Notes under the pieces: model-generated
Told to the model about the DNA's origin: nothing
Databases searched by the model: none
Seen by the model: only the letters and a program-made list of their open reading frames with translations
Shown here: positions 8,375 through 63,390 of the stretch, piece after piece
Layout of the letters: each line of letters opens with the position of its first letter
How positions within the stretch are numbered: the stretch's first letter is position 1
Translations under genes and position numbers: made by a program
Origin: Eledone cirrhosa
Taxonomy: Eukaryota
DNA: 64,000 nt
NCBI GenBank assembly: GCA_964016885.1
Contig: OZ024743.1
Location: 92,008,001-92,072,000, forward strand
Direction: 5' to 3'

Positions 8375-8723
8375 CGATATTAATAAATGGAAACTATATT
8401 TATAAAACCATATTTATTTCATTATACATATTTCAAGGATACCAAGTTAAATTATGGTATGCCTTCATCAGACAATATACAATATATATATCAGTTTTAC
8501 AAATAAGCATTGACAAAAAGAAAAAAAAAAAGTTTTAATTTATTCTTAATTTCATTGAAAACTACGTGAATCCAGCCCTTGTTCTATGACACAAAACTGT
8601 TTTAAAGATTGTATTTAAACATTTTCAGTAAGTTAAACCCCAAACACTAGCTTAATAATTTCCCGATTACTTTCAAAATTATTTTTAAATGATAGGCAGT
8701 ATCTTTCATGAGAAATATATTAA

Positions 8724-9519: not shown

Positions 9520-9575
9520 ACTGCCTGATGAGGTCATAGCCATTCAATAGCTATCATCGAAATATATATAGCAGT
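9520..9575 (+). ncRNA. Type I hammerhead ribozyme motif within a (TA)n-flanked PLE 3' remnant (9456-9620)
   Basis: ACTGC-CTGATGA-GGTCATAGC..GCTATCATC-GAAA-T-ATAT-A-TA|GCAGT. All core residues and stems I and II are present. Confidence 0.8.
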
Positions 9576-12750: not shown

Positions 12751-15700
12751 ATTGATGGCTGCAAACTCTGCCAAGAGTATTGCAATCGCTTGTCAGATTC
12801 AGGTGTGTGACGCTCGGATATGGCTTTTCACGCCCGCTAGAGACTTGCACTCCTTCACACACTGACGCCAACTATGGATCTCCCTGGCCTCAGGTCTTGC
12901 ATCAGGTTGCCTGTGAACCCTCACAACACCGTGGAGATCATAGTTCACTAGTTCTCTCTGAATATGGCTGTGACTGTGGCTTCTGAGACCAGATTTGCTC
13001 AAGCAAATTGTTCCACACTCAGGGCACTTCACTTCAATGGAGACACCAATTGTTTCAAGAGATACACCAGGGCATTGCTTACGCACATCCCTTTTGATCT
13101 TCTCGTGCTCTATGCGTCTGTCCTCAAAATTATGGACCCATCGTTCACCATTCCACGCCAAGTTTCTCTTTCAAGAGTTTCTATCTCCCAGTCAGCCATC
13201 ATCAAACCAATTCTTTTCAATAAGTCCTTTACACAATCCTTGAATCGGAGCCTTGGCTCGTGAGGTGGTCTCTTACCCTCACAAAGCTGGCCATACAAAA
13301 GTTGTTTTGGGATTCGATCATCCTCCATTCTGCAGAGGAGTCCGATCCATCGCAAACGCCGTTGGTGGATGATACTTTCAATGCTGGGAAACTTCTCTCA
13401 AGGACCTCAACATCACTCACATGCATCTGCCACTTGATACCAAGCATCTTTCTGAGACACTGCTGGTGAAACCGTTCCAGTCTGTGGATATGCCGTTTGT
13501 AGGCAACCCATGTCTCACATGCATACAGCAAAGCTGACATTACACATGCAGCAGACACTCTCACCTTGGTCCTCGTTGTGATTCCTCGCCTGCACCAAAG
13601 ACGGTCGTTGAGCCTTCCAAATGACTCACTTGCTTTACTAACACGTAGACCAACTTCTGCATCCAGAGAGTAGGTCATACTCAGAGTACTCCCCAAATAC
13701 ACAAATGTGTCAGCAGCCTTCAGCTTTTGACCGTATACGTGTATGGAGGGTTCATTGAAAACTTTATCCGGAGCAGGTTGGTACATGACGACAGTCTTCT
13801 TCAGACTGATTGTCAGTCCCAAAGCACTGCACGCATTGGAAAAAGAATCCATAAGGTGTTGCATGTCACTCTGGGGGTGTGCAAAGAGATCACAATCATC
13901 TACATATAAAAATTCTCTGATCAAGGTACTCACTACCTTAGTGTTGGCAGTGAGACGCCTAATGTTAAACAGCTTGCCGGAAGTGCGATATCTGAGATAG
14001 ATACTGTGTTGACAATCCTTGAAGGCCATGAAAAACACCATCGCGAAATACAAGGCAAACAAAGTTGGTGCAGGTATATCACCCTGCTTGACACCATTTT
14101 CAACCGAGATTGGCTCAGACAGTTTACCTCCAACATTCACCCATGCCTGCATGTCATCGTGGAAGAGTTTCAGAATGTTCACAAACTTTTCAGGACAGCC
14201 CAATCTCTCTAAAATAACCCACAAAGCCTTCCGATTAACGGTGTCAAATGCCTTGGTCAGATCGACAAAAACTTGGTATAAGTCCATGCGCTGCTCAATG
14301 CATTTCTCTTGAAGTTGTTTGGCCGAGAAAATCATGTCAACAGTGCCTCTGCCATTCCTAAAGCCACATTGGGACTCAGGAAGTACCTCAACAGCAATGT
14401 GATGTATCAATCTGTCCAACAATATCCTGCACAAGATCTTCCCAGCCACAGATAGCAGTGAAATACCTCTGTAGTTGCCACAGTCATCTTTGGCTCCATT
14501 TCCTTTGTAAAGTACCACCATCAGTGCGTCTTTCCAATCCTGTGGCACATCTTCTTCATTCCAAACATTCACAAAGAGATCAGTGAGGCGGTTTAAGAAG
14601 TTATCACCAGCACACTTGAAAATCTCGGCACTCAGTCCATCCATTCCAGGTGACTTGCCGCTGTTTAATTTGGCAATGGCCTTCGCCACTTCATCAAATG
14701 AAGGAGGATCAGCCATTGCCAGCTTTGTAGGTCTGGATGGAATCGACCGGATGAACTTATCATCAATTTCTGATGGTCTGTTGAGAAGCTCATCAAAGTG
14801 GTCATGCCACCTGATAAGGATTTCCTTCGGATCTCTGAGCAATTCCTTGCCGTCCCCGGAGCGAAGTGGTGATATTTGTGAATCGGTCGGACCATACACC
14901 TCCCTGAGCAGACTGTATAGGAGCTTTGCATCATGTCTATCTGAGGCCTTCTTGATTTCATCAGCCTTTTGGCTCCACCAGGTATCCTGCTTGGCTCTCA
15001 ATCGATGTTGCACACGTGCCTTGATCTGCCTGAAGGTCCGGTCACTCCTGTCAGAACGTGTCTCACAACAATGATGTCAGCACTTTTTGTTTCTCTTCAA
15101 GCAAGGTCTGTATCACTGGATCATTTTCATCGAACCAGTCTTTATGCTTTCTATTGGTATGACCCTAAACTCCAGCACTAACATCATAGACGGGTTTCTT
15201 CAATGATTCCCAAGTGTTTTCACATTCCATGGACTCAAGGGACCTCGACAGCTCAGCTCTGACTTTCTCTGTTTTCAGACGAGCCACGTTTAGTTGTTTT
15301 GGAAGTGCAACCTTCTTCCCCCTTACTTTAGGTTTCATAACAAATTGAAATTTGGCGCGCACCAGACGATGATCAGTCCAACATTCCGTGCCTCGCAATA
15401 CACGAACCGATGTGATATCCCTGATATCACGTTTTCTCGTTAAAACGAAGTCAATAAAGTGCCACTTCTTGGAACCTGGATGCATCCAAGTTGTCTTATA
15501 TTTGTCTTTCTGCTGAAAGAGCGTGTTCCCAATAAGATCCATCTCAGTGCACATCTGCAACAGAAGTAGGCCATTGTTATTGCACTTACCTACTCCATGC
15601 CTGCCCATCACACTCCAAGCTTCCCAGTCATTACCAACACGTGCATTAAAATCACCAAGGATGACAATCTTGTCTGCATAAGGTATACCATGGATGACGT

Positions 15701-16723
15701 CTCTCAAAGACATGTAGAAACTTAGTTTTTCATCATTACTAGCACACATAGTAGGAGCGTACACACTGACCAGAGTCACAAAGCGGTTTTGAATCAGAGG
15801 GACTCTCATGGACATTATCCGATCATTGAATCTACAAGGAATATTTTCCAGCTTTGAGACGATTCCATTCCTGACAGCAAATGCGACCCCTGCCTCTCTC
15901 CTACAACCCTCTGCTCCACCACTCCAATAGAAGGTATATCCTCCCTTCTGTTCTGTGAATTGACCCTCACCTGCCAATCTCGCTTCTGAAAGAGCAACGA
16001 TGTCCATGCTATAGCGATCGTGTTCCCTCGACACCAAAGCAGATCTTCTCTCGGGGCGAGTTTTACTGGACTGGGTATCCAAAGTTCTTACACTCCAACA
16101 TCCAATATTCAGAGGTTTGAACCTCCTTGCAGTTGTAGGATGACGACCGGGCCCACGCTGCGGTGCCATGGGACACCTGCCGGGCCAGACTACTTCACAA
16201 TAAGTTTCAGAGCCCTTACTGCCATTGACTTCAAGGTTATCATCTGTCATCATAGAGCTTGGTGCACTTTTAAGCTACGGCCAGCCACACGAACCTGTAA
16301 CAGATCCTGTAATCGGTGCCTGTGCTTTGAAGGTTTTTTAAGTGGGGAAAAGCCTTGCACTCGACCAATCCCATTCTCTGAGCATCTAAAACACTACCCG
16401 AAAAGGAGAACTGGTCAACATCGCTGGATGCTTCCGAAGCCACAGGTTTTCTTTTCAGAGTTTTCCTCTCTTAGAAAGGTGTCGTGACAACAACTGGGGG
16501 CCTTTCACTCCCAGGTAAAAAAAAAAAAGTACTATTTGGATGGCCGTTGACTCTGCTGAGTTCCTCCGCCATTTGCCAGGTTTTGTATTTCATCCCGCAG
16601 GGTGTCCAAATATCACCCTCCTCACCAAGCTTGGTGGGGTTACCGGTTTATTCGCCGACGGCCCGACCATGAGACAGGTAGTACTGGGTTACATATTACC
16701 AGTAGCACTCGAGAGCAACCTGA
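12751..16723 (-). mobile_element. Full-length, frameshifted RTE-clade LINE (APE endonuclease + RT + C-terminal zinc fingers)
   Basis: APE motifs (IGCWSVRTL, DIVALSE, SVYAPT, GDFNARVG, IDFVL, TDHRLV) in 15165-16253. RT motifs (NYRGISLL, QCGFR, FVDLTKAFD, GVKQG, YVDD, YLGS) in 13229-15013. RWIG..RM..RIPKQLLYG and CPECG..H in 12799-13355. Flanked by (TACA)n. Confidence 0.95.
13229..16253 (-). pseudogene. RTE ORF (endonuclease/reverse transcriptase), disrupted by frameshifts
   Basis: Split into 362-aa and 594-aa ORFs plus C-terminal pieces in other frames. Confidence 0.9.

Positions 16724-18775: not shown

Positions 18776-18780
<5 letters not shown>
18636..18780. mobile_element. Fold-back mini-element, family B
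   Basis: Homologous to 38127-38312. Tail carries GTACTCAATAC, followed by an imperfect hairpin and then (TA)n. Confidence 0.65.
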
Positions 18781-18814
<34 letters not shown>

Positions 18815-18820
<6 letters not shown>

Positions 18821-19011
18821 AAGTGTTTAACCCCGACGGCAGAGCTCAAGCCGTTTTGACGGCTATGCTATTTCTGTCCAGAAATAGCCGTCGAAACGGC
18901 TTGAGCTCTGCCGTCGGGGTTAAACATTTTCCTATTACCCACTCTACTACCCTAAGTATTGAGTACTCTGGTGCATTATGCTCCATCTGATTCCTTACCA
19001 CACTTCCTTCG

Positions 19012-19013
<2 letters not shown>
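18815..19013. mobile_element. Fold-back mini-element, family A
   Basis: Hairpin 18815-18935 plus a 78-nt tail, between (TA)n tracts. Six copies lie in the window. Confidence 0.8.
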
Positions 19014-19087
<74 letters not shown>

Positions 19088-19092
<5 letters not shown>

Positions 19093-19796: not shown

Positions 19797-20213
19797 GTAG
19801 GAGGTGAGTTTTATTGTAGCACAATAAAGCAATGCAAATATCGGATAAGTAGCACTCTACAGTTTGTAGGACTGGAGTATAAATAATATAAGATCAAAAG
19901 ATGGTTAAAAGAGTTCCAAGTATTTTATACTCCTTATACTCCTCCCCCACCATTCTTTACTCTCATCTCCTCCTCTTCCTTACCTTTACCAACCCCCCCA
20001 CTCACTTTTTCCCAATCTCATACATCAATCTTAAATTATTTTTCATATGTTGATTTAAAACTTCACTATTCACAAGTGTTTTTTAAGCTTCATATCATGT
20101 ATCCCTATTTTATCTGATGAAAACGCAGATATCATCCCATGATGATATTTGTTTTTGAAATGCGCATAATAAAATACTTGGAACTCTTTTAACCATCTTT
20201 TGATCTTATATTA
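19797..20213. mobile_element. PLE-like mini-element, family D (tail + inverted 45-bp arm + hammerhead + arm)
   Basis: 19884-19928 is the reverse complement of 20169-20213. Flanked by (TA)n. Confidence 0.8.
20106..20176 (+). ncRNA. Type I hammerhead ribozyme motif
   Basis: TATTTTAT-CTGATGA-AAACGCAGATATCATC-CCAT-GATGATATTTGTTTTT-GAAA-T-GCGC-A-TA|ATAAAATA. 8-bp stem I, long stem II, palindromic stem III loop. Confidence 0.85.
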
Positions 20214-20216
20214 CAG

Positions 20217-20852: not shown

Positions 20853-21464
20853 TTTCTTTATTAGCCACAGGGGCACAAAAGAAGGGGACAAATACAAAGG
20901 GGGAAGTTTACATACAATAAAAACGTGTAAAATGTTATCACAGATGGAATTTAAAAGTTAGTCGATTTTCCCCAATAGAGGGAGACAGTTTATATGGGTA
21001 ACACAGACCCCCGAAAAAAATGTGCAACCCTCATCTCCAGGAGTACGAAGAGCTTGTACTCCTTTCCTCTCCTCCTCCTTTTCCTCAACCTACAGGCTGA
21101 TATAGAGAGAAGGCCCATTCACTCGGGCCATTCTCGCCACTTTCACCCACCTTTCATAAAACTTGCTGGGGTACAGCACCTCTCTCTCCATCCTGATTCT
21201 TCTTCCAAAGTGGTATTTGAAAAAAAGAATCAGTTGTTGGCCGGAGAGAAAGGTGTCTGACCTCAGCCCTTTCAACCTTGTCCACCATACAACCTCTTTC
21301 GCCATAGCTATCACACAAAGGAAAACCGCCTCTCCTTCGTTTTTGAAGGAGGGTGGCGGTTTGATCATGACAATGGACTCGGTGGTCAACCGGATTGGTC
21401 CCACCCGCGACAACAGTCGTTCTACATAGCCCCACAGGTCAGTGACGCCCGGGCAGTGTATGAA
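20853..21464 (-). mobile_element. Tx1-like LINE 3' fragment
   Basis: ORF2 C-terminus (HCPGVTDLWGYVERLL..FYERWVKVARM) is paralogous to 21.75-22.1 kb and 49.4-49.75 kb. GATA repeats on both sides. Confidence 0.85.
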
Positions 21465-21487
21465 TAGATAGATAGCTAGATAGATAA

Positions 21488-24400
21488 CTTTCTTTTTATT
21501 TGCCACCAGGGCATCAAAAGTGGGACAAAGGGGGAGTTTACATGCAAAGACGTCCTCAGTATGGAGGAGGCAATAACAATATATAAAAGTATAAAAATAA
21601 AATAAAATATAACAAAATAAATTTCATAACAATATCCTCAATAGGGAGGAGGCGCCTTGGGGGGTCGCACACAACCCCGAAAAAAAGTGTGCAACCCTTC
21701 TCCTCAGGAGCACAGAGAGGGGGGTGCTCCCTTGGTCTTTCATCTTCCTCACCTATAGTCTGATGTAGAGTGAAGGCCCATTCACACGGGCCATTCTCGC
21801 CACTTTCACCCATCTTTCATAAAAACGGCTGGGGTGCAGCACCTCTTTCTCCATCCTGATCCTTCTTCCGAAATGATATCGGAAGAAACGGACCAGTTGT
21901 TGGCCAGAGAGAAAGGTGTCTGACCTCAGTCCTTTCAGACGCGTCCACCATACAACGCCATGGCTATTACGCACAGAAACACCGCCTCTTCTTCGTTTTT
22001 GAAGAGGGGAAGCGGCTTGATCGTTACAATAGACTCGGTGGTCAACCGGATCGGTCCCACCCTTGACAGCAGTTGTTCGACATAGCCCCACAGATCGGCA
22101 ATGCCCGAGCAGTGTACCAATGCGTGTGCAACGGTTCCTCGTCGCACATGCATCTGGGACAGATCTTTTTCGAGGGGTCCCTACCCGGGCGCCCGTGTCT
22201 GTAGAGCCTTTCTCGAACGGGCAGAGCCCTTCTGTAACATTGCCAGGCCAGGGACCTCTGGAAGTTATCCATGGGTCCCGGGCTGAATGTCCTACCGAAC
22301 AGGTTTGCCAGTTCGTCTTCCTCCATGCCTAGGGCTTCTCCGAGGGCGTCGTCGCACCTGCTAACCACCAGCTCTCTATAGAATGACGAGGTGGATTCTT
22401 CACTGACAGCCGGGTCCGCCTGCCAGAGAGCCGTGAGCGCCTGGGCACACTCGGTGTGCCAGGCGCCCAGTTTTCTCGGTCTTTGCTTGACCCAGGATTG
22501 CAGCTCGGTGAGTTAGACGAGTCTGGGAAAGGCTCGCCTCACAAACGGGGCCCACACCGGTTGACCGGAGAGGAATACCTGAAGGTGCCGTAGACTTAAT
22601 GCGTGTTTACGTATCATTAGCCACGGCATCCCCAGCCCTCCTTTCGAAGGGTGTTGACAGCAGATGTAATCTTCTCACCATAGGAGCCCGCTTCTTCCAA
22701 AGGAATTGGAAGAGCGCGCGCTCCATTTTGGCGAGCGTTTCCCTTGGGCAAGGCACAACAGTCATGCGGTAGTAGATGACGGACGCTATATAAGTGTTCG
22801 CCACCTCCACCCGACCTTTCAGGGACAGTTTGCACTCGGCCCACTTCTGGGTCCGTGCAAACACCCTGTTCGTTACCTCACCCCAGTTCTTCTCCACCTG
22901 GAGGTCTGGTCCGAACCAGACCCCGAGCAACTTCACCGGACCCTCCGTCCAGCGCCCGACGACGCCATCGGAGGGCATCGATCTGCCCCTCCACGTGCCG
23001 AGTTGCAGACCGATCGACTTGTCCCGGTTCAGCTTAGTCCCTGTAAACCTTTCGTACTCCTCCAGTAAGGTGCCGATCGCCCCCATTTCCGAGGCCGTCG
23101 ACACCATTACTGTTACGTCATGGGCGTAAGTCCGGCATAGCTAGATATAGTTCGTATGGAAGACCATCGAGACCCGGGGATTTGCCTTTGCCGCATTGGC
23201 TCAGCACGTCCTCTATCTCAGCGGCTGAAATCGGCTCCTCGCAGGACTTCGCCTCCCTGTCCGAGAGACGCGGCAGGCCGTCGAGGTATGGACCAAAGTC
23301 CACATCCCCAACCGGCCCCCCGCCTCTTCCGAACAATCCGGCAAAGTGCTTTTGAAAAGCCTCGCACATTTGCTTAGGTTCAAGGATTACCCGTCCATCC
23401 TGGTCTCGCAAAGACTGGATAGTGGATCTGCTCCCTCTTTTGGCTTCTGTCACGCGGGCCCAGCTAACAGCTTTGGTCCCCTCGTTTCCCAGAGCACGTA
23501 TTTTGCTTCGGACGATGCAGCCTTCGTGTTTCGCGTCGAAGAACTGGCCCAGGCCCGTTCTCGACGCTAGCACTCTGGCCACGTCGCCGCTTCTAATTGC
23601 CTCTTCTACACTATCTACCAACTCCCTTTCCTTCCTATTTCTATTTGAGGCTAATTCCTTACTAAATTCTATAGAGACTACTCTAATCTCTCTTTTGAGA
23701 GATCCCCACCACCTGCTGTTGACGATGGCGCCCGTCAACCGCTCCTTAACTAAAGTGCTAATCCGGTCCCTGTAAGCCTTACTTGCCGGTAAGGACAAGT
23801 TGAGCTTCCAGTAACCGGGTCCCTGTCTATGAGTTCTGTCAAGGTTGACCATGCAGGTCACTAACTTGTGGTCTGAATAGCCAACCATGCGCATTTTTGG
23901 ACAACTTAAAAAGTCCTTATCCTTAATTCTAACTAAGAACCTATCTAGGTACGACCTAGATGATCCGCTACGATTTGCCTAAGTCCAGGTTGGCGCAGTC
24001 GGAAAATCTAGTCGATATCTATCGGCCAGGTCAAATCGACCGATTAACCCTTTGAGGCTATTACACCCCTCTCTATCGGGACAGGCCCCTACGTAGTCCC
24101 AGCGTGCATCTAGGATACCATTCCAGTCCCCCACTAATAGCATGGAGCGGGACGTCCCTAGAAAAGTCTCCAGACGATGGAAGAAGTCCGGCCGCATTGA
24201 CCCGAAAGGGCCGTAGGCGGCTACCAACCTAAACGCTCCGCCTTTACCACTGCCAAGGTCCAGAACCACTAGTCGACCCTCCGGGTCCAAATGTACCATC
24301 TGTGTTGCGAGACCCAGATGTTTTTGCAGCAGAACGACAACTCCACCCCCACCTCCGGGCTGACAGAGAGATGCGTGCATCTCAAAGTCATCAAAGGTGG

Positions 24401-26556
24401 GGGCCAGCTGTCGCACGTTGCTGATCCGGGCCTCGCAAATAACCATCACATCTATACGTTGTGACCTGAGGTCATTTAGAAGCATTGCTTGCTTCCAAGT
24501 TGAGCCCAGGCCACGCGCATTTAAACAGCCTACTCTTAGCATAGCCATGTTGGTGGTGAAGAGAAAAGGCACTTGCCTCTCTGCGTCCGGGTATCGAGCT
24601 GCACAATTTCCATTAGGGTGGGGGATGGGTTGTTGGGTGGGGTGGTGGTTTGTGGAAGTGTTGTGTGGTTGGGGAGTTTGGAGTTGTGTGGGTGTTTGGG
24701 GAGGGGGTGGGGTAGTTTTTTAGGAGGACGCGGTTAATGGGCCCGACGCAGGGGGGACCCACGTCCTCTTTAAAATTGTATTTTAAAGTTTTATATGTGT
24801 CCTGTGGGGCCTTAATCATTTTGAGGTGGGGGAAATGCCCTGCCTGGGTGAAGTTAGGCCCTTGTGTTTTTATTAGATTGTTGTTGTACACAATGTTTAA
24901 CAGTTTTTTGTTTCTTGTGTTTATGTATGTGTATGCATGTTTTTGTTTTTGTGTGGTGTTTTTTGTTTGCTGTTGTTGTGAGCTCTTTTGTGTTGGTGTC
25001 AGTGTTATGTTTTGGGGAGGGGTTGTTTTCATTTGTGTGTCTGAGGTGTGTTTTCTTTTTTTTCTTTTGATTGTGTGGAAGTGCTCCTCCTCGTCTGACG
25101 ACGAACTAGGGTCATCTTCCGCGTTGGAGGGGAGGGGTATATTTTCGGGTTGTGTTTGCGGTGCGGGTGTTTTGGAAATTGTTTTTGTTTTTTGAGTGGA
25201 GGGGATGGGTTGGACATTGTTTTGTTTTGGTTTGAGCTGTGGTGGTTGTTTTTGTAGCGGTAGTTGTGGTGATTGTGTTGGTTGTGCAGTTGTTGGTGGT
25301 GTAGGCAGGATGGGGTTTTCTTATTAAGTTGGGGACAGACAGCCCTCAGGTGACCTCTGGTTCCGCAGAGGTAACACGAGGGCCGCCTACCCTCAACGGT
25401 AATGTTGATGAAAGTTAGATCATCCAGTATGACGCGTTCAGGGATCTGGGCGATCCTTTCAGGCCTCATTTGAACTACAAGTTCGAGGCTCGTTCCACTG
25501 AACGCGTCACCCGATGCTTTTCCCATGGACACCAGCATGTCATCATCCAGGTCCAGGAAACCTGTCAAAACCCACCATATGTCCATAATCGGCAGGATGG
25601 TGTGGATTTTTATTTTTTGTGTTCTTCTACCCATGTACGTAGGGTAGAAGGTGTATGCGGTGGATGTGATTGGTTTGATGGACAGTTTCACTGCTGTGTC
25701 CCTGTCCTTCGTGAGAATGGATAGACTCCCGTAGAGTCTATCCTTCTGAATGAAGGTGATGTCCTTCATGACGTCTTTTAAAACCAGCTCTATCTCACTC
25801 TGTGATGGTTGAGCTGGTTTTTTGCTTTTATTCAAGATTGTCCTAAACATGACAGTGGTTAGGAGTCTCTGGCTTTTTAGTTCCGGGGGGGGGGGGATGG
25901 ATCGTGAATGAACCATTTTCCCCGTACACTATATATTTTTTGGCATCTGCCAAACGCTTTGGTTATATCTACTGGCAGATAGTCGAGTGTTTTCCTTGCC
26001 GTCTCGGCGAAGGAGAAATTTTTTTTGTTTGTGTTGCTGTTGTAGTTGGTGGTGTTGTTGTTATCATTGTTGTTGTTGTCACAGTTATTGGTCTTGTTGT
26101 TGTTGTTATTGTTATTGGTGTTGTTTTCGTCCGTCGCATTGTTGTTGTTGTTGCTGTTGCTGGTGCCGCTGGTTCTTTGGGTTGTTTCCATGGCAACGTC
26201 AAGTTGTCGGTTAACAGGTGGAGAAAATCCTTCCTCTGGCTGACCTTTCTTTTTGACCTCTGCTACTGTGACAGTGGCAGGGGGAAGCTGTAAGTTTATC
26301 TTCCCCTTTCCTCCTTCGAATTTTGGTGAAGATGCTTCAGCCATTTTTATCAAAATAGGATTTTTCGAAATATTAAATGTTTACAACACTATTTCGCCTA
26401 AAGGCGTAGAATATTTTGAGAGACTGACCAGATCAAAATTTGACGTGGCAGTCCCTCTACAAAATGGTACAAAAATGAAAGTTTACAGTTCACAATTTCC
26501 AGTTAAATTTAAACGAAACTTACCGAGCGAGCTCAGCACATGCGTCCATCGTAAAG
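21488..26556 (-). mobile_element. Tx1/L1-clade LINE, 5'-complete but decayed (ORF1 with CCHC knuckle, ORF2 APE-RT-CCHC with RT-core deletion)
   Basis: ORF1 26353-25029 contains CYLCGTRGHLRAVC. ORF2 starts at 24548 (CLNARGL, GDWN, SDHK, GPGYWKLN, GKSPGLDGLP, KLLGVWF, CPRC..HALVHC). (GATA)n at both ends. Confidence 0.9.
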
Positions 26557-40207: not shown

Positions 40208-40510
<303 letters not shown>

Positions 40511-43694: not shown

Positions 43695-43877
43695 ATTGGC
43701 AGTATCGGTAGAGGGTCGGACGTCATGCTTTGCAGCAAAGAGTTATGGCCCTTTATGATCTGAGTTCAAATCCCACCAAGGTTACCTTTGCCTTTCATCC
43801 TTACGAGGTCGATAAAATAAAGTACCAGTAATACACTGGGATAATTGCTGGCCTTGTGCTAAAGTAGAAACAATTAT
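43695..43877 (+). mobile_element. Meta-like tRNA-SINE (inverted duplicate of 20334-20516)
   Basis: Near-identical sequence, including the TTAGGG flank. Confidence 0.85.
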
Positions 43878-44170
43878 TATGATAGGGTTAGGGTTAAGGT
43901 TAGGGTAGAAACAATTATGATATATATGTATGTGTATATATATATATATGAATTAGAACCCTGTAACCATTAAGCTCTAAGTATAAAGTACAAATAAATA
44001 CTGAGCCGATTAACAATATATAGTAAGAAACACAGTAAACCGTGTGTCCAAAATTACAAGGGTTGAAAAACCACATATGCTTGAAATATTTAACCAAGAA
44101 ACAGACAGAATGACGAAATGAAAATAAAAATATATTATCAAATAATACAAACCGCCTCAATAACCATTAT

Positions 44171-44252
44171 ATCTCTCGGACAGATTATCCCTAATCTGTT
44201 TCGCCCTGAGTGTGTTTGTAACAGATAATCCTGGGCTTCATCAGCGAGAGAT
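44171..44252 (-). ncRNA. Complete type I hammerhead ribozyme motif with stable stem III
   Basis: ATCTCTCG-CTGATGA-AGCCC..GGGC-GAAA-CAGATTA-GGGA-TAATCTG-TC|CGAGAGAT: 8-bp stem I, 7-bp stem III, GUC cleavage triplet. It lies in a (TA)n-flanked insert at 43950-44410. Confidence 0.9.
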
Positions 44253-44431
44253 TGCGATTAAATGCCACAAACACTATATGCCAACGTTCACACAGAAAGA
44301 TGAATTCATCACCTCGTGCTTCGCCAGCCAAACGTGGTAAGCGCGTGTTGAACAGAAATAACAGTCAAACACGCACAACTTAATAGCTCATCCTGTAAGA
44401 GAGCCGAAATATATATATATGTGTATATATG

Positions 44432-44475
<44 letters not shown>

Positions 44476-44476
<1 letters not shown>

Positions 44477-44805
44477 TGTAATATAAGATCAAAAGATAGT
44501 TAAAAGAGTTCCAAGTATTTTATTATGCGCATTTCAAAAACAAATATCATCATGGGATGATATCTGCGTTTTCATCAGATAAAATAGGGATACATGATAT
44601 GAAGCTTGTGAATAGTGAAGTTTTAAATCAACATATCATGTTGATTTAAAACTTCACTATTCACAAGTGTTTTTTAAGCTACATATCATGTATCCCTATT
44701 TTATCTGATGTGAACGCAGATATCATCCCATGATGATATTTGTTTTTGAAATGCGCATAATAAAATACTTGGAACTCTTTTAACCATCTTTTGATCTTAT
44801 ATTAC
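44476..44805. mobile_element. Inverted pair of family D segments, with hammerheads at 44516-44586(-) and 44697-44767(+)
   Basis: Both arms match 20048-20214. The plus copy has CTGATGT in place of CTGATGA. Confidence 0.8.
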
Positions 44806-44920: not shown

Positions 44921-44925
<5 letters not shown>

Positions 44926-45094
44926 AAAATGTATGACCCCGACGGCAGAGCTCAAGCTATTGCTGAAATAGCCGTCGAAACGGCTTGAGCTCTACCGTCG
45001 GGTCATACATTTTCCTATTACCCACTCTACTACCCTAAGTATTGAGTACTCTGGTGCGTTATGGTACATCTGGTTCCTTACCACAACTCCTTCG

Positions 45095-45096
<2 letters not shown>
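44921..45096. mobile_element. Family A mini-element
   Basis: Arms AATGTATGAC / GTCATACATT plus the conserved tail. Confidence 0.8.
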
Positions 45097-45180
<84 letters not shown>

Positions 45181-45209
45181 GTACAATAATGTATGTATAT
45201 ATATATATA

Positions 45210-45320
45210 TAACGAAGGAATTCTGGTAAGGAACCAGATGGACCATAACACACCAAAGTCCAGAAATAGCCGTCGAAACGGCTTGAGCTCTGCCGTCGGG
45301 GTCATACTACTTTTTCCTAT
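45210..45320. mobile_element. Family A mini-element, internally deleted, opposite orientation
   Basis: Tail start plus right arm. Confidence 0.75.
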
Positions 45321-45675
45321 ATATATATATATATATATATATCATTAAAGAAAGAAAAAGAGAAAGAGAAAGAGAGAGAGATAATCAGAGAGGTGGAACA
45401 GTGGGGAGATAACAGAGTGCTGCAGAAAACATTACATCATAAATGTTACCTGTAAATCTCATCATCTAGAAGGTTCTTCTCGTCTCATTGCTATATTGCT
45501 ATATTGGTGTATAACCACTGTTATATTGATTACTGACAAGATCAAAGACAGTCATCATATAACCTAGCTTCCTGGACAGTTTTCGCCTGACGAGTTTACA
45601 GAACGAGACTTTGAGACAACGTATTTGATATGTTTTCATGGCGTCTCAGTTTACATCTACCTGTGTTGTTGATTG

Positions 45676-49140: not shown

Positions 49141-52100
49141 TTTCTTTATTTACCACAAGGGCGCACAAGAAAAGGGGACAATACAAAGACATGCCGCGGA
49201 TTTTACATACAGTCGTGTAAAAAATATAAAAACAAACAATTACAACAATCGAAATCCCCAATAGGATGGAAGCGCCACAAATGGATTGTTTAATACCCCG
49301 TAGATAGAACAACCCTCAACTTCAGGAGCGTGTTGTACAAGTGCTCCTTTCTTCCTTTTGCTCTCTTCTTTAACCTACAGGCTTATAAACAGAGAAGGCC
49401 CAATCACTCGGGCCATTTTCGCTTCATTCACCCACCTTTCAGTAAATTTACTGGGGTGCAGTGCCTCTCTCTCCACTCTGATTCTCCTTCTAAAGTGATA
49501 CTTAAAGAAGGGAATCAATTGTCCTCTGGAGAGAAAGGCATCTGTCCACAGTCCTCTCAATCTCATCCACCATATAACTTCTTTCACCATAGCCACTGTA
49601 CAGAGGAAAACTGCCTCTCTTTCGTTTTTGAAAGAGACTGGCGGTTTGATCCTTACTATGGACTCGGCAGTCAACTGGATTTGGCCCATACGCGACAGCA
49701 GTTGTTCTGCATAGTTCCACAGGTCGGTTACGCCCGGGAAGTGTACAATTGCGTGTAGGACGGTTTCAATGTCCTGCGCGCATCTTGGACACGTCCTCTT
49801 GGAAGGATCCCTGCCGGGGCGTCCGTGCCTGTAGATCTTGTCACGAACCGGTAGAGCTCCTCGGTAGCACTGCCAGGCCAGAGACCTCTGGAAGTTGTCC
49901 ATAGGTCCCGGGCGGAAAGTCCTACCAAACAGACTGGTGAGCTCGTCGTCTTCGACGCCCAGAGTCTCTCCGAGCACGTCATCGCCCTTGTAACGTACAA
50001 TCCCTCTATAGAATGTCGAAGTGGAGTCTCCACTGATTGCTGTGCCCGCTTGCCAGAGGACTGTGAGCGCCTGAGCGCATTCAATGTGCCAGGCGCCCAT
50101 CGTTTTCGGTCTTTTCTTCACCCAGGACTGCAGCTCCGTTAGCGAGACGAGCTGCGGGAAAGCCTGTCTCACAAACAGTGCCCACACCGGCTGGAGGTCG
50201 GTGAGGAATACCTGGAGATGCCGCAGCCTCAGCGCATGTTTGCGCATCATCAGCCACGGCATTCCCAGCCCTCCGTTGGAAGGGTGCTGACAGCAGACGG
50301 ATCTCCTCACCTGCGGAGCCTGCTTCTTCCACAGAAACTGGAAGAGCATGCGCTCCATCTTGGCGAGGTGTTCACGGGGACAAGGCATGACAGTCAAGCG
50401 GTAGTAGATGACGGACGCTATGAAAGTGTTCGCCACCTCCGCTCGACTTTTCAAGGACAGGTTGCATTCTGCCCACTTCTGGGTGAGCGCAAACACCTTG
50501 GCCGTGACCTCGTTCCAGTTTTTCTCCACCTGGAGGTCTGGACCGAACCAGACACCGAGCAATTTCACCGGTCCGACCGTCCAGCGTCCAACGACGCTGT
50601 CGAACGTCATCGGTTTGCCTCGCCACGTACCGAGTTGCAAACCGACAGACTTGTCCGGGTTTAGTTTTGCTCCCGTCAGCGTATTCTTTCAGTAAATTGC
50701 CGATCACCCCGATTTCCGAGGTGCTCGACACCATTACCGGTTCTAGAGGGATGCCCTGCAACAGCTCCAATTTCCGCAGTAGTGGCTCTAGAGTCAATAC
50801 ATACAGAATGGAGGAGAGAGGGCACCCCTGTCGAATGGAACACGTGATTGCGAACGGCTCCGATAGGTAGCCGTTCACCTTGACCCTCGAGCAGATGCTG
50901 GTGTGCATCGCCTCTATCATAGTTGACTAAGCAGACGACTAATTTGTGATCTGAATAGGCAACCATGTGCATTCGTAGATAGCTTAACATCTCCTTGTCC
51001 CTTTCTCTAATGAAGAACCTATCTAAATACGATCTAGATGTCCCGCTGCTGTTTGCCCACGTCTACTGTGGTGCAGTCGGGAAATCCAGTCGATACCTAT
51101 CGGCCAGTTGGAATTGGCCGATTAAAGTTTTGAGGCTTTTGCACACACACACACACACACCCGACCCCCTCTACTGGGACATGCTCCCAGATAGTCCCAT
51201 CGTGCATCTAGGATACCATTCCAGTCCCCCACTAAAAGTAAGGAGCGAGACGTTCCCAGAAAAGACTCTAGACGTGATTGCGATTGCCCGGTCGGGGCAT
51301 AAACGGCCACCAGTCTGAAGGATCCACCTCCAATAGTGTTCACATCTAGGACTACCAGTCTACCCTCCGGGTCCAAGTGTACTTGCTGCACTTCGACGTC
51401 CAGGTTCTTCCGAAACATGACAGCCACTCCCCCTCCACCTCCTGGCTGACAGAGAGATGCGTAGATCTCAAAGTCGTCGAAGATGAGGGTTAGTTGCTGC
51501 CTGTTGTGGATCCTGGACTCGGTGATGGCTATCACATCCATACCGTGTGACCTAGCGTCGTTTAAAAGTTGGCCCTGTTTCCAGGGCATCCCTAGGCCAC
51601 GCACATTCACGCTTCCAACTCGTTAACTAGCCATGTTGGTGAAGAAAAGTTGGAGAAAAACGACCAAAAGGTGCACTTACCTTTTCGTTTCCTGGAGATT
51701 GGGTTGTTCAATCTCCATTTGGGTGCTGGGTGGGGTGTTGGGTGGGGTGGGGAAACATTTTAACAGGACGCGGTTGGTGGGTTTGTGGCAGGGGTTGCCC
51801 ATGTCCTGTGAACATTTTTTTTCAGGTCATTATAGGTTTCCATAGAAACCCTTATAAGTTTAAGGTGTGGAGACGATTCTACTTTGACGAAAGTTTTGCC
51901 CTCCGTCTCCACCTTGGGGTTTTGGGAGATGACCTCCATCAAACTCTTGTTGTTTGTGTTGATGTATGCGTATTGTTGTTTGTGTTTTTGTTGTGTTGTT
52001 TTAGTTTGTTGTTCGTCCGGGAGTTTTCTTTTTATGGTGGGTGCTTGTGTTTGGGGTGGTGTTGGTTTTGCTGGTAGGAGGATGTTTGACTGTGGTGTTG

Positions 52101-53357
52101 TTTGTGTTGTTGTTTGTGTCTGTGGTTGTGTGTTGGTGATTGGAATTTGGGATTGTTTTGGTGTTGGTGTTGGTAAAAGTACTTTTTTTTAAAGATTTGT
52201 TTGTAAAGGGCAGGAGGCTTTTATGTGTGATGTGCTTGCACATCGAAAACAGTGTGGCTTTCTGCCCCCAGTTATGATGTTGATGTAGTTCTGGTTGTCG
52301 GCCAGCACTCTTTCGGGGATTTGGGAAATTCTTTCTGGTGTCATTTGTGTCAGAATTTCCAAATTTGTGCCTGCCCACCTTTGTCTGGTCGATTTCCTGA
52401 CCGAAAGAATTGTATCACTTTCTGGCTCTATAAAACTGGCCAAGATCCACCGAATGTTGATGTTTGGTGGTATATTATTTATTTTAATTTTTTTAGTTCT
52501 TTTTCCCATGTAAGTAGGGGAAAAGGTGTGTGTTTTTGTAATGACTGGTGTAACAGAATGCTTTTGTGCGAGGGCTTCTCTTATAAAAAGTACCGAAACA
52601 CTTCCATATAGTCTGGCCCTCTGCATAAAATCAATATCCGGCAGAGCCTCTTTCAGGGTTGTTTCAATTTCTCCTTGACTGAGGAATACCGGTTTTTTCG
52701 TTTGATTTGAAACAGTTCTGAAGGTTACTGTCCTTCGAACTGTTTCTCATTTAATTTGCAAGGGTGAGTTTATATGAAATCCACCCTTTTCTTCAAAGGT
52801 TATGAATTGTTTTGCATCGGTCAACATTTGTTTGGAGTTGCTTATGTTGATGTGTTTGTACTCTGTTTTATTTATCACAGTCTGTGCGAATGTTTTTTCA
52901 ATTTTGTTGTTGTTGGTTTTATCGTTTGTAGTTGTGTCAATTGTTTCAATTTCTGCATTTTCTGTATTTTTTTGTGTCTGTTGTGGGCTGTTATTTTCAT
53001 CTTTTGTTGTGTAAATATCCATTTCTTTACGAAACGAAGTTTTGTTGTTGTTCGTTTCCATATATACTTCTATGGAAATAGAGGGAGACATAACGCTTAT
53101 ATCTGTCTCTTTCCTTCTCTTCTCGCAGTCTAGCGTTCGTTGTAAGTCACACATTGTTAAAGTTACGAAAATTTTTAAAACTTGTCAATTTTTTTAAATT
53201 AAATTTCCGCCCCTGTGGGGCGAAAACTGAGATTACCACGCAGCCGACAATTCAGCCTGGGTGTTAATCTATCAAACAATATAACATTTTACACAATGAA
53301 TTCTGTTTTTGTATGGAAAATTTTACAAAAACTTACCAGCGATCTACCACACGTCCG
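49141..53357 (-). mobile_element. Second Tx1/L1-clade LINE, 5'-complete, decayed
   Basis: ORF1 pieces 53154-52189 contain CFRCASTSHIKASC. ORF2 starts at 51634 (NVRGL, VYAPT, GDWN, SDHK, IRQGCPLS, GGLGMP, CPRC..H). (GATA)n at both ends. Confidence 0.9.

Positions 53358-63059: not shown

Positions 63060-63390
<331 letters not shown>

Follow-up and report, generated by a model that had tools for sequence, protein, structure and literature searches.

The hammerhead and its repeat family

The window, by which we mean the whole 64,000-nucleotide stretch of Eledone cirrhosa DNA analysed, carries on its minus strand a hammerhead motif within a short insert flanked by (TA)n (Table 1). Read on that strand, stem I pairs an 8-nt 5′ strand (44245-44252) with a 3′ strand at 44171-44178, and the core consists of CUGAUGA (44238-44244) and GAAA (44199-44202). 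Stem II is formed by GCCC (44233-44236) and GGGC and is closed by a 26-nt loop II (44207-44232), which contains AUUAUCUG, the stretch that a first-pass annotation had proposed to pair with stem III. Stem III and its loop read CAGAUUA-GGGA-UAAUCUG, followed by U16.1 (44180) and C17 (44179), and the predicted cleavage point lies between C17 and 44178. The core CUGANGA/GAAA/UH with G10.1-C11.1 and the three helices of 8, 4 and 7+1 bp, with stem I open, are those of a type I hammerhead.

Table 1. Features of the insert and its target, in window coordinates.
Feature	Position	Strand	Basis or remark
Retrozyme monomer, dispersed non-LTR family, subfamily A1, period 469-471	43945..44410	minus	(AT)n run at both ends
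(TA)n target, 5′ side of insert	44411..44475
(TA)n target, 3′ side of insert	43918..43944
Type I hammerhead	44171..44252	minus	core read, folding, descriptor; conservation across copies
Upstream strand, 5′ side of P0	44256..44274	minus	predicted to pair with loop II (12 + 5 bp) and to block; may in part be a pseudoknot
Loop II strand of P0	44212..44230	minus	overlaps the stretch first paired with stem III
Internal UAUAUAUU run	44015..44022	minus	"short" 3′ end of family insertions; putative second reverse-transcription start
70-nt "tail" between short and long 3′ end	43945..44014	minus	ends in junction (AT)n run (putative first start)
Predicted 3′ stem	43957..44064	minus	44052-44064 paired with 43957-43968, around short start site

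All elements named in the first-pass annotation (8-bp stem I, CUGAUGA, GCCC/GGGC, GAAA, 7-bp stem III and the triplet) were found. Its label of a textbook ribozyme failed, owing to an extra A (44237) between A9 and G10.1 that it had not listed, the 26-nt loop II and sub-threshold Rfam scores: nothing reached the gathering level in the Rfam search, and HH9 gave a weak 15.5 bits (E 1.3, cut-off 52). An extra nucleotide after A9 is a described hammerhead variant and a listed trait of Penelope-type hammerheads in the available parts of PMC4209133. As an isolated 96-mer, the motif adopted the three hammerhead helices as its MFE structure (−24.5 kcal/mol, z −2.4, equalled by 5 of 200 shuffles). A strict descriptor (stems I/II/III of at least 5/3/5 bp) matched this single site in the whole window and nothing in 300 dinucleotide shuffles. 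We conclude that the motif is, by its sequence, a real type I hammerhead. Inspection by eye of the strand opposite the motif found no ribozyme there.

The stable stem III was upheld as a difference from the minimal motifs elsewhere in the window, whose stem III is short and palindromic. A looser descriptor matched four of these, at 9525+, 20114+, 36385− and 44578−, and further minimal cores lie at 8471− and 57314−. The set at 9525+, 36385−, 8471− and 57314−, the first two of which pass the loose descriptor, resembles motifs found beside autonomous Penelope-like frames. The cores at 44578 (minus) and 20114 (plus) belong to a second element that targets TA, is present in very many copies and has its arms head to head (44476-44800 and 20045-20215); the insert described here lies in its (TA)n tail.

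The insert is 466 bp long, is TA-flanked and is missing from an inverted paralogue at 20.05-20.53 kb whose flanks are otherwise ~98% identical. The first-pass annotation had recognised the absence from the paralogue, giving a size of 460 bp and a paralogous locus at 20.2 kb. Both flanks are (TA)n, so no target-site duplication can be delimited. The (AT)n run that bounds the insert is also the junction between tandem units of a repeat family; unit positions are numbered from 44410 downwards, which places C17 at 232.

Three other genomic copies are 100% identical to the window unit across 466 bp, and a genome search with this unit gave 117 matches among the 40 scored of 1,393 candidates. Motif searches of the genome returned 213, 461 and 638 matches for younger subfamilies; the motif for older subfamilies, in which loop III differs in sequence, returned 519. 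Each reversed control had 0 matches. The units (periods 451-487) join head to tail via a short (AT)n run, in arrays of up to ~7. The tandem copies that the annotation had suggested seeking as a sign of retrozyme behaviour were present: 96 of 169 loci had a tandem join, and 21 had at least two whole ribozymes in one arm. In a tree of 103 full units the subfamilies were star-like; older groups were 68-83% identical to the window unit, and ten loci were flagged as mixed between neighbouring subfamilies. One insertion occurs four times (L044-L047) within 240 kb of one contig, as a segmental duplication. The family was also detected in sequence reads of three organisms, with the tandem joint in two (RAD-seq and runs of unspecified type). 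Viral contigs gave no match to it, and a motif to which loose ends in public contigs had pointed was not matched in this genome.

Units have a GC content of 33-37% and lack a coding frame, as expected of non-LTR retrozymes; among the frames of the window, none of at least 120 aa overlaps the unit, which is also without the RT plus GIY-YIG open frame of an autonomous Penelope-like element. No LTR pair was seen at the insertions, whose ends are (TA)n. On these sequence grounds, the insert is a monomer of a protein-free, (TA)n-targeted non-LTR retrozyme family of hundreds of copies, which we call young because identical copies exist. The literature searched held no paper on this family or on retrozyme tail rules; supplementary Figures S6/S9 of PMC7229834 may bear on ends and self-blocking.

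Other repeats occur in the window. A third TA-flanked element (44924-45345, 18780-19090, 63061-63390 and 40247-40491) has inverted arms with apparently one long and one short end, and it adjoins the 5′ end of a retrozyme arm in L164. A 185-bp repeat at 43695-43880 and about ten other places is of very high copy number and SINE-like; it was not recognised as tRNA, and a tRNA search of the window found none. LINE-type elements with an APE endonuclease lie at 13229-16274, 21090-25928 and 49375-53184 (minus), the RT domain being recognised in the first. The frames of the window are LINE-type (RVT_1, Exo_endo_phos) and unrelated to the retrozyme.

Insertion ends and the copied template

We mapped the ends of the family in 169 non-redundant loci, after removal of overlapping loci, of the non-hit L173 and of three loci that are segmental duplicates of L044. 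The 3′ ends fell at the unit junction (130, long ends), at the internal UAUAUAUU run ~70 nt upstream (95, short ends) or elsewhere (12). Head-to-head insertions combined one long with one short end in 81 of 90 cases; eight paired a long end with another end, one was short+short and none was long+long. The rule also held in loci picked without the ribozyme motif (39 of 43 head-to-head insertions). In a count that retained the L044 duplicates and L173, (TA)n lay within 14 nt of 209 of 244 3′ ends. The short-ended arm extended further 5′ than the long-ended arm in 21 of 74 cases, and thus the arms are not simple fold-backs.

A tail on one of two head-to-head, 5′-truncated arms, together with an AT-rich microsatellite target, marks insertions mobilised by Penelope-type machinery. 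The one-armed tail is described for Penelope-like elements in the available parts of PMC8557442 and PMC3846280, and Frangieh 2024 (PMC11167929), who called it unique to such elements, traced it to two internal start sites, spaced by the length of the tail, which serve a predicted dimer that introduces a nick in each strand. This genome itself contains an autonomous element with RT and a GIY-YIG-type domain, L275 (of the same family as L264 according to Pfam), that likewise has the tail on one arm only. The end pattern is that of a Penelope-like two-ended insertion, and the enzymology was probably similar. Earlier papers on metazoan retrozymes, in the parts available, deduce a connection to Penelope from co-occurrence and from homology to pLTRs; in this family the connection is visible in the ends of the insertions. 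There are differences: the tail is ~70 nt here versus 30-40 in Penelope-like elements with endonuclease (in the available text), and the target is matched here by both start sites, which are AU runs, whereas those of the anole Penelope-like element have no homology to its target (PMC11167929). The predicted 3′ stem around the short start site may be a recognition structure for a partner protein. Its sequence is kept in old subfamilies; covariation analysis of the stem gave nothing convincing.

The genome offers many possible partners. It contains 10,596 GIY-YIG candidates; of these 150 were scored, and those listed exceeded the cut-off. In several GIY-YIG elements a single long frame encodes both this domain and an RT. 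When three to six natural units were compared by BLAST with 30 + 20 GIY-YIG loci from among the 10,596 candidates, the retrozyme unit showed no homology to the ends of these 50 loci, nor to a pseudo-LTR. Among 76 single-arm loci, one (L055) adjoins a Penelope-like frame head to head without TA. This joint and a second, in L301, are chimeric, each with the 3′ arm of an autonomous Penelope-like element (L055:1490-3363 and L301:3815-5210) and a retrozyme arm head to head without a TA spacer. Both are long+long and involve two different Penelope-like families, too few to name the partner; they are suggestive of joint insertion of retrozyme and autonomous element.

The 5′ ends bear on the template. 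They were scattered, with only 1 of 237 at unit positions 231-236 and hence no pile-up at the cleavage site, and 173 of 273 arms crossed that site (64 of 134 in the subset unbiased by the ribozyme motif). The template was therefore not a linear monomer cut by the ribozyme. Variants private to one locus were common to its tandem units in 22 of 203 comparisons and to its opposite arms in 24 of 252, against 53 of 16,650 between loci, a difference of ~30-fold. For this test overlapping loci and the three L044 segmental duplicates were dropped, L173 was retained, and L028 and L069 were set apart. Such sharing is what repeated copying of one monomeric circle would give. Most private variants are unshared, and those that are shared could also come from gene conversion or local duplication after insertion.

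The same variants weigh on another template, an uncleaved linear multimer from a source array, with the ribozyme acting at another stage, where the Penelope-like protein might switch it on. If a heterogeneous source array had been copied, position-specific variants should recur, yet each was found in at most four loci, mostly one or two, and the 30-fold excess of sharing between tandem units speaks against it as well. In its favour, unprocessed RNA was the main insertion substrate and the ribozyme was protein-assisted in Frangieh 2024 (PMC11167929), and a blocked ribozyme would leave multimers intact. Moreover, arms reach four to seven units and no more in the loci examined, and an L022 variant is common to the outermost units of both arms and not the inner unit. 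On balance we regard this template as rather unlikely, with a chance of perhaps one in four, and favour the circle.

Local amplification or conversion after insertion is clear in the long arrays L028, with alternating variants, and L069, with six identical units, as would be seen if the family were a satellite spread by DNA-level events and its ribozyme a relic. The family, however, occurs as dispersed single insertions whose 3′ ends are fixed and whose 5′ ends are scattered, and it forms inverted arms; together with the selective conservation of the ribozyme described below, this makes such an origin highly improbable.

Folding of the ribozyme in its natural context

The first-pass annotation had expected the hammerhead to cleave as a monomer. 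This held for the fold of the trimmed motif, in which stems I and II formed with p 0.97-0.99, and it failed in the computed fold of a longer RNA, where the addition of 25 natural upstream bases lowered the value to 0.00. The computed competitor is a helix, termed P0, between unit positions 137-155 and 181-199. Enclosed within it are CUGAUGA and the 5′ strands of both stems I and II. The computed probability of P0 was 0.97-1.0 in the monomer; the helix was lost when the RNA began at 141 instead of 137; and in growing-chain folding all of it had formed once the chain was 200 nt long, when stem II cannot yet close. Circles of natural period were modelled for ten loci, two of which gave none; stem II reached at most p 0.007 in seven of the eight and 0.23 in one. 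P0 exceeded p 0.5 in 49 of 82 distinct copies, comprising 28 of 44 young, 16 of 21 middle-aged and 5 of 17 old ones (old median p 0.04). These computations predict that P0 keeps the hammerhead folded shut in the monomer and in most circles.

The annotation had also suggested that loop II could pair with the 5′ strand of stem III to give an inactive fold. This complement exists; computed folding pointed to the upstream strand, not stem III, as the strong competitor. The loop II/stem III pairing lies 3.8 kcal/mol above the hammerhead fold, has p 0.01 here (at most 0.03) and exceeds 0.5 in only 1 of 82 distinct copies; stem III itself forms at p ~0.9 in all contexts. A freely cleaving monomeric hammerhead with this off-state is therefore improbable as an account of the family, even though the 7-nt complement hardly varies, also at two U residues that P0 leaves unpaired or in wobble pairs, and the alternative appears in the MFE fold of two old copies (L239, L248+).

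P0 is well conserved. In 40 copies, 15 of its 17 columns were 95% paired and mismatches fell mostly in two columns; both strands and all three segments are conserved. True covariation was absent from these 40 copies, with only three single-cell double changes. An 8-bp core of P0 is worth −8.0 kcal/mol as a duplex. This core could coexist with the hammerhead, and ViennaRNA cannot score pseudoknots, so the computed block may be overstated.

This leaves room for an opposite role, with element and mobilisation unchanged: the upstream strand would form an activating pseudoknot in which the 8-bp core, or else a 5-bp proximal part, docks loop II beside stem I in the active fold, and the ribozyme would be fast. 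The core shares no nucleotides with stems I-III and is the best-kept part, with 97.5%, 96.4% and 80% of cells paired in three groups against 89%, 69% and 26% for the next two pairs. Such pseudoknots occur in ~40% of hammerheads and are critical for speed, according to the available part of Perreault 2011 (PMC3088659). As a candidate loop II/stem I tertiary contact, P0 is conserved without covariation, and the HH9 score is far below cut-off. On the other side, all three P0 segments are conserved, not the core alone; with the whole of P0 formed, stem II would have to be closed by only 2 + 5 nt of loop II, a geometry that we take to preclude coexistence; the nested P0 hairpin forms first in growing chains; and inserted arms read through the cleavage site with no piling up there. 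We give the activator role about the same low weight as the multimer template and retain P0 as a predicted blocker.

Conservation, mobilisation and meaning

Between the majority sequences of ten subfamilies, 4 of 81 ribozyme columns differed versus 102 of 385 outside (Fisher p 4e-6). Once inserted, copies had changed at about the same frequency inside and outside the ribozyme (39 of 4,475 versus 293 of 25,854 sites). The contrast between subfamilies is inflated in part because several, including B and C in part, were found via ribozyme motifs. Copy parsing and pairing counts covered only copies with intact anchor motifs, so the invariance of stem III there is not evidence. The positions that the parsing did not fix behaved as would be expected. 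C17, left free in the search pattern, was C in all 140 parsed copies. N7 varied (U, G or A), as did loop III in length and sequence, and stem I showed the series UA/UG/CG in 25/10/2 of 40 copies. The extra nucleotide after A9 also varied, with 83 A and 19 U among 102 copies of subfamilies A-C; CChMVd(+) has such a nucleotide, at which A and U are tolerated, in the available parts of PMC3705267. The oldest group has two extra letters after A9 in 10 of 17 copies. From the comparison of sequences, the ribozyme is under selection across subfamilies, part of the contrast being ascertainment.

Two variants were observed in older copies. In the oldest-group loci L235, L284 and L311 and their relatives, two extra nucleotides follow A9 and N7 is G. 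The loop III sequence UCCC of the middle-aged L233, L238, L247 and L248 is the reverse complement of the GGGA of young copies, an in-place inversion inside the stem III hairpin.

We consider it fairly probable that the retrozyme is copied by a Penelope-like RT/GIY-YIG protein from a monomer RNA that is likely circular, with P0 predicted to hold the ribozyme mostly inactive. Tandem arrays would be transcribed, and most of their RNA would be blocked because the P0 hairpin forms before the 3′ strands of stems II and I exist. Occasional refolding, to which the conservation of the ribozyme points, would let two successive ribozymes excise a monomer, and a host ligase would close the circle. In the circle, P0 is predicted to stop the re-formed ribozyme from cutting. 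A borrowed protein would then nick both (TA)n strands and prime each of them at a different one of two AU runs separated by 70 nt; copying would run round the template through the ribozyme site, and two 5′-truncated cDNAs would be joined head to head. The observed end pattern underlies this last step, and its enzymology is putative. The window copy would be the product of exactly one round, a monomer with its closure at the (AT)n junction. Counting against the model, cleavage was dispensable for insertion in vitro in Frangieh 2024 (PMC11167929).

The hammerhead itself and the retrozyme class are already known; what is unusual is the predicted self-block and the clear mobilisation signature. 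The family shares with metazoan non-LTR retrozymes, as presented in the available parts of PMC7229834 and of Li, Clavereau, Pollet 2026 (bioRxiv 10.64898/2026.07.22.740005), one type I hammerhead per unit, tandem and solo copies, the lack of a coding frame and coexistence with Penelope-like elements. It differs from what these parts describe in its long, non-palindromic stem III, and its unit length equals or exceeds the upper limit of the 150-450 bp given there by Cervera and de la Pena 2020 (PMC7229834). Unlike the Penelope-like elements with endonuclease described in the accessible text of PMC8557442, PMC3846280 and PMC11167929, the retrozyme has neither RT nor endonuclease, and its full stem III contrasts with their minimal palindromic one.

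In self-blocked hammerheads of viroids and plant LTR retrozymes, a complementary strand masks the ribozyme in the circle, as is predicted here; the extra A after A9 also recalls CChMVd(+), as far as the available text of PMC3705267 goes. The present ribozyme is type I rather than type III, belongs to an element without LTRs, and would be masked by only 17 bp in three segments. Self-blocking is not predicted for most circles of animal retrozymes, some mussel ones excepted, in the sections available of PMC7229834. If the predicted block is real, this family would be an exception among animal retrozymes and would resemble viroids. As a tentative extension, this animal retrozyme may possess an RNA switch of the viroid kind, built into its own sequence, by which the ribozyme is kept shut in the circle. 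Its insertions may also document a rule that Penelope-like integration follows in vivo: a dimeric protein would begin one strand at the far site and the second at the near site of one circular RNA, and at times it would bring a retrozyme and an autonomous element into a joint insertion (L055, L301).

Two questions stand open in the literature, as represented by the texts available: by what machinery animal retrozymes are mobilised, and what prevents their circles from self-cleaving. A young, short family with clean ends makes both directly testable. P0 is a single helix, and its disruption would decide between blocker and activator. The rule of one long and one short end supports, from genomic data, the view that a Penelope-like dimer primes at two sites on an RNA that is non-autonomous, and a shut ribozyme would let the repeat RNA, likely a circle, survive to be copied into DNA.
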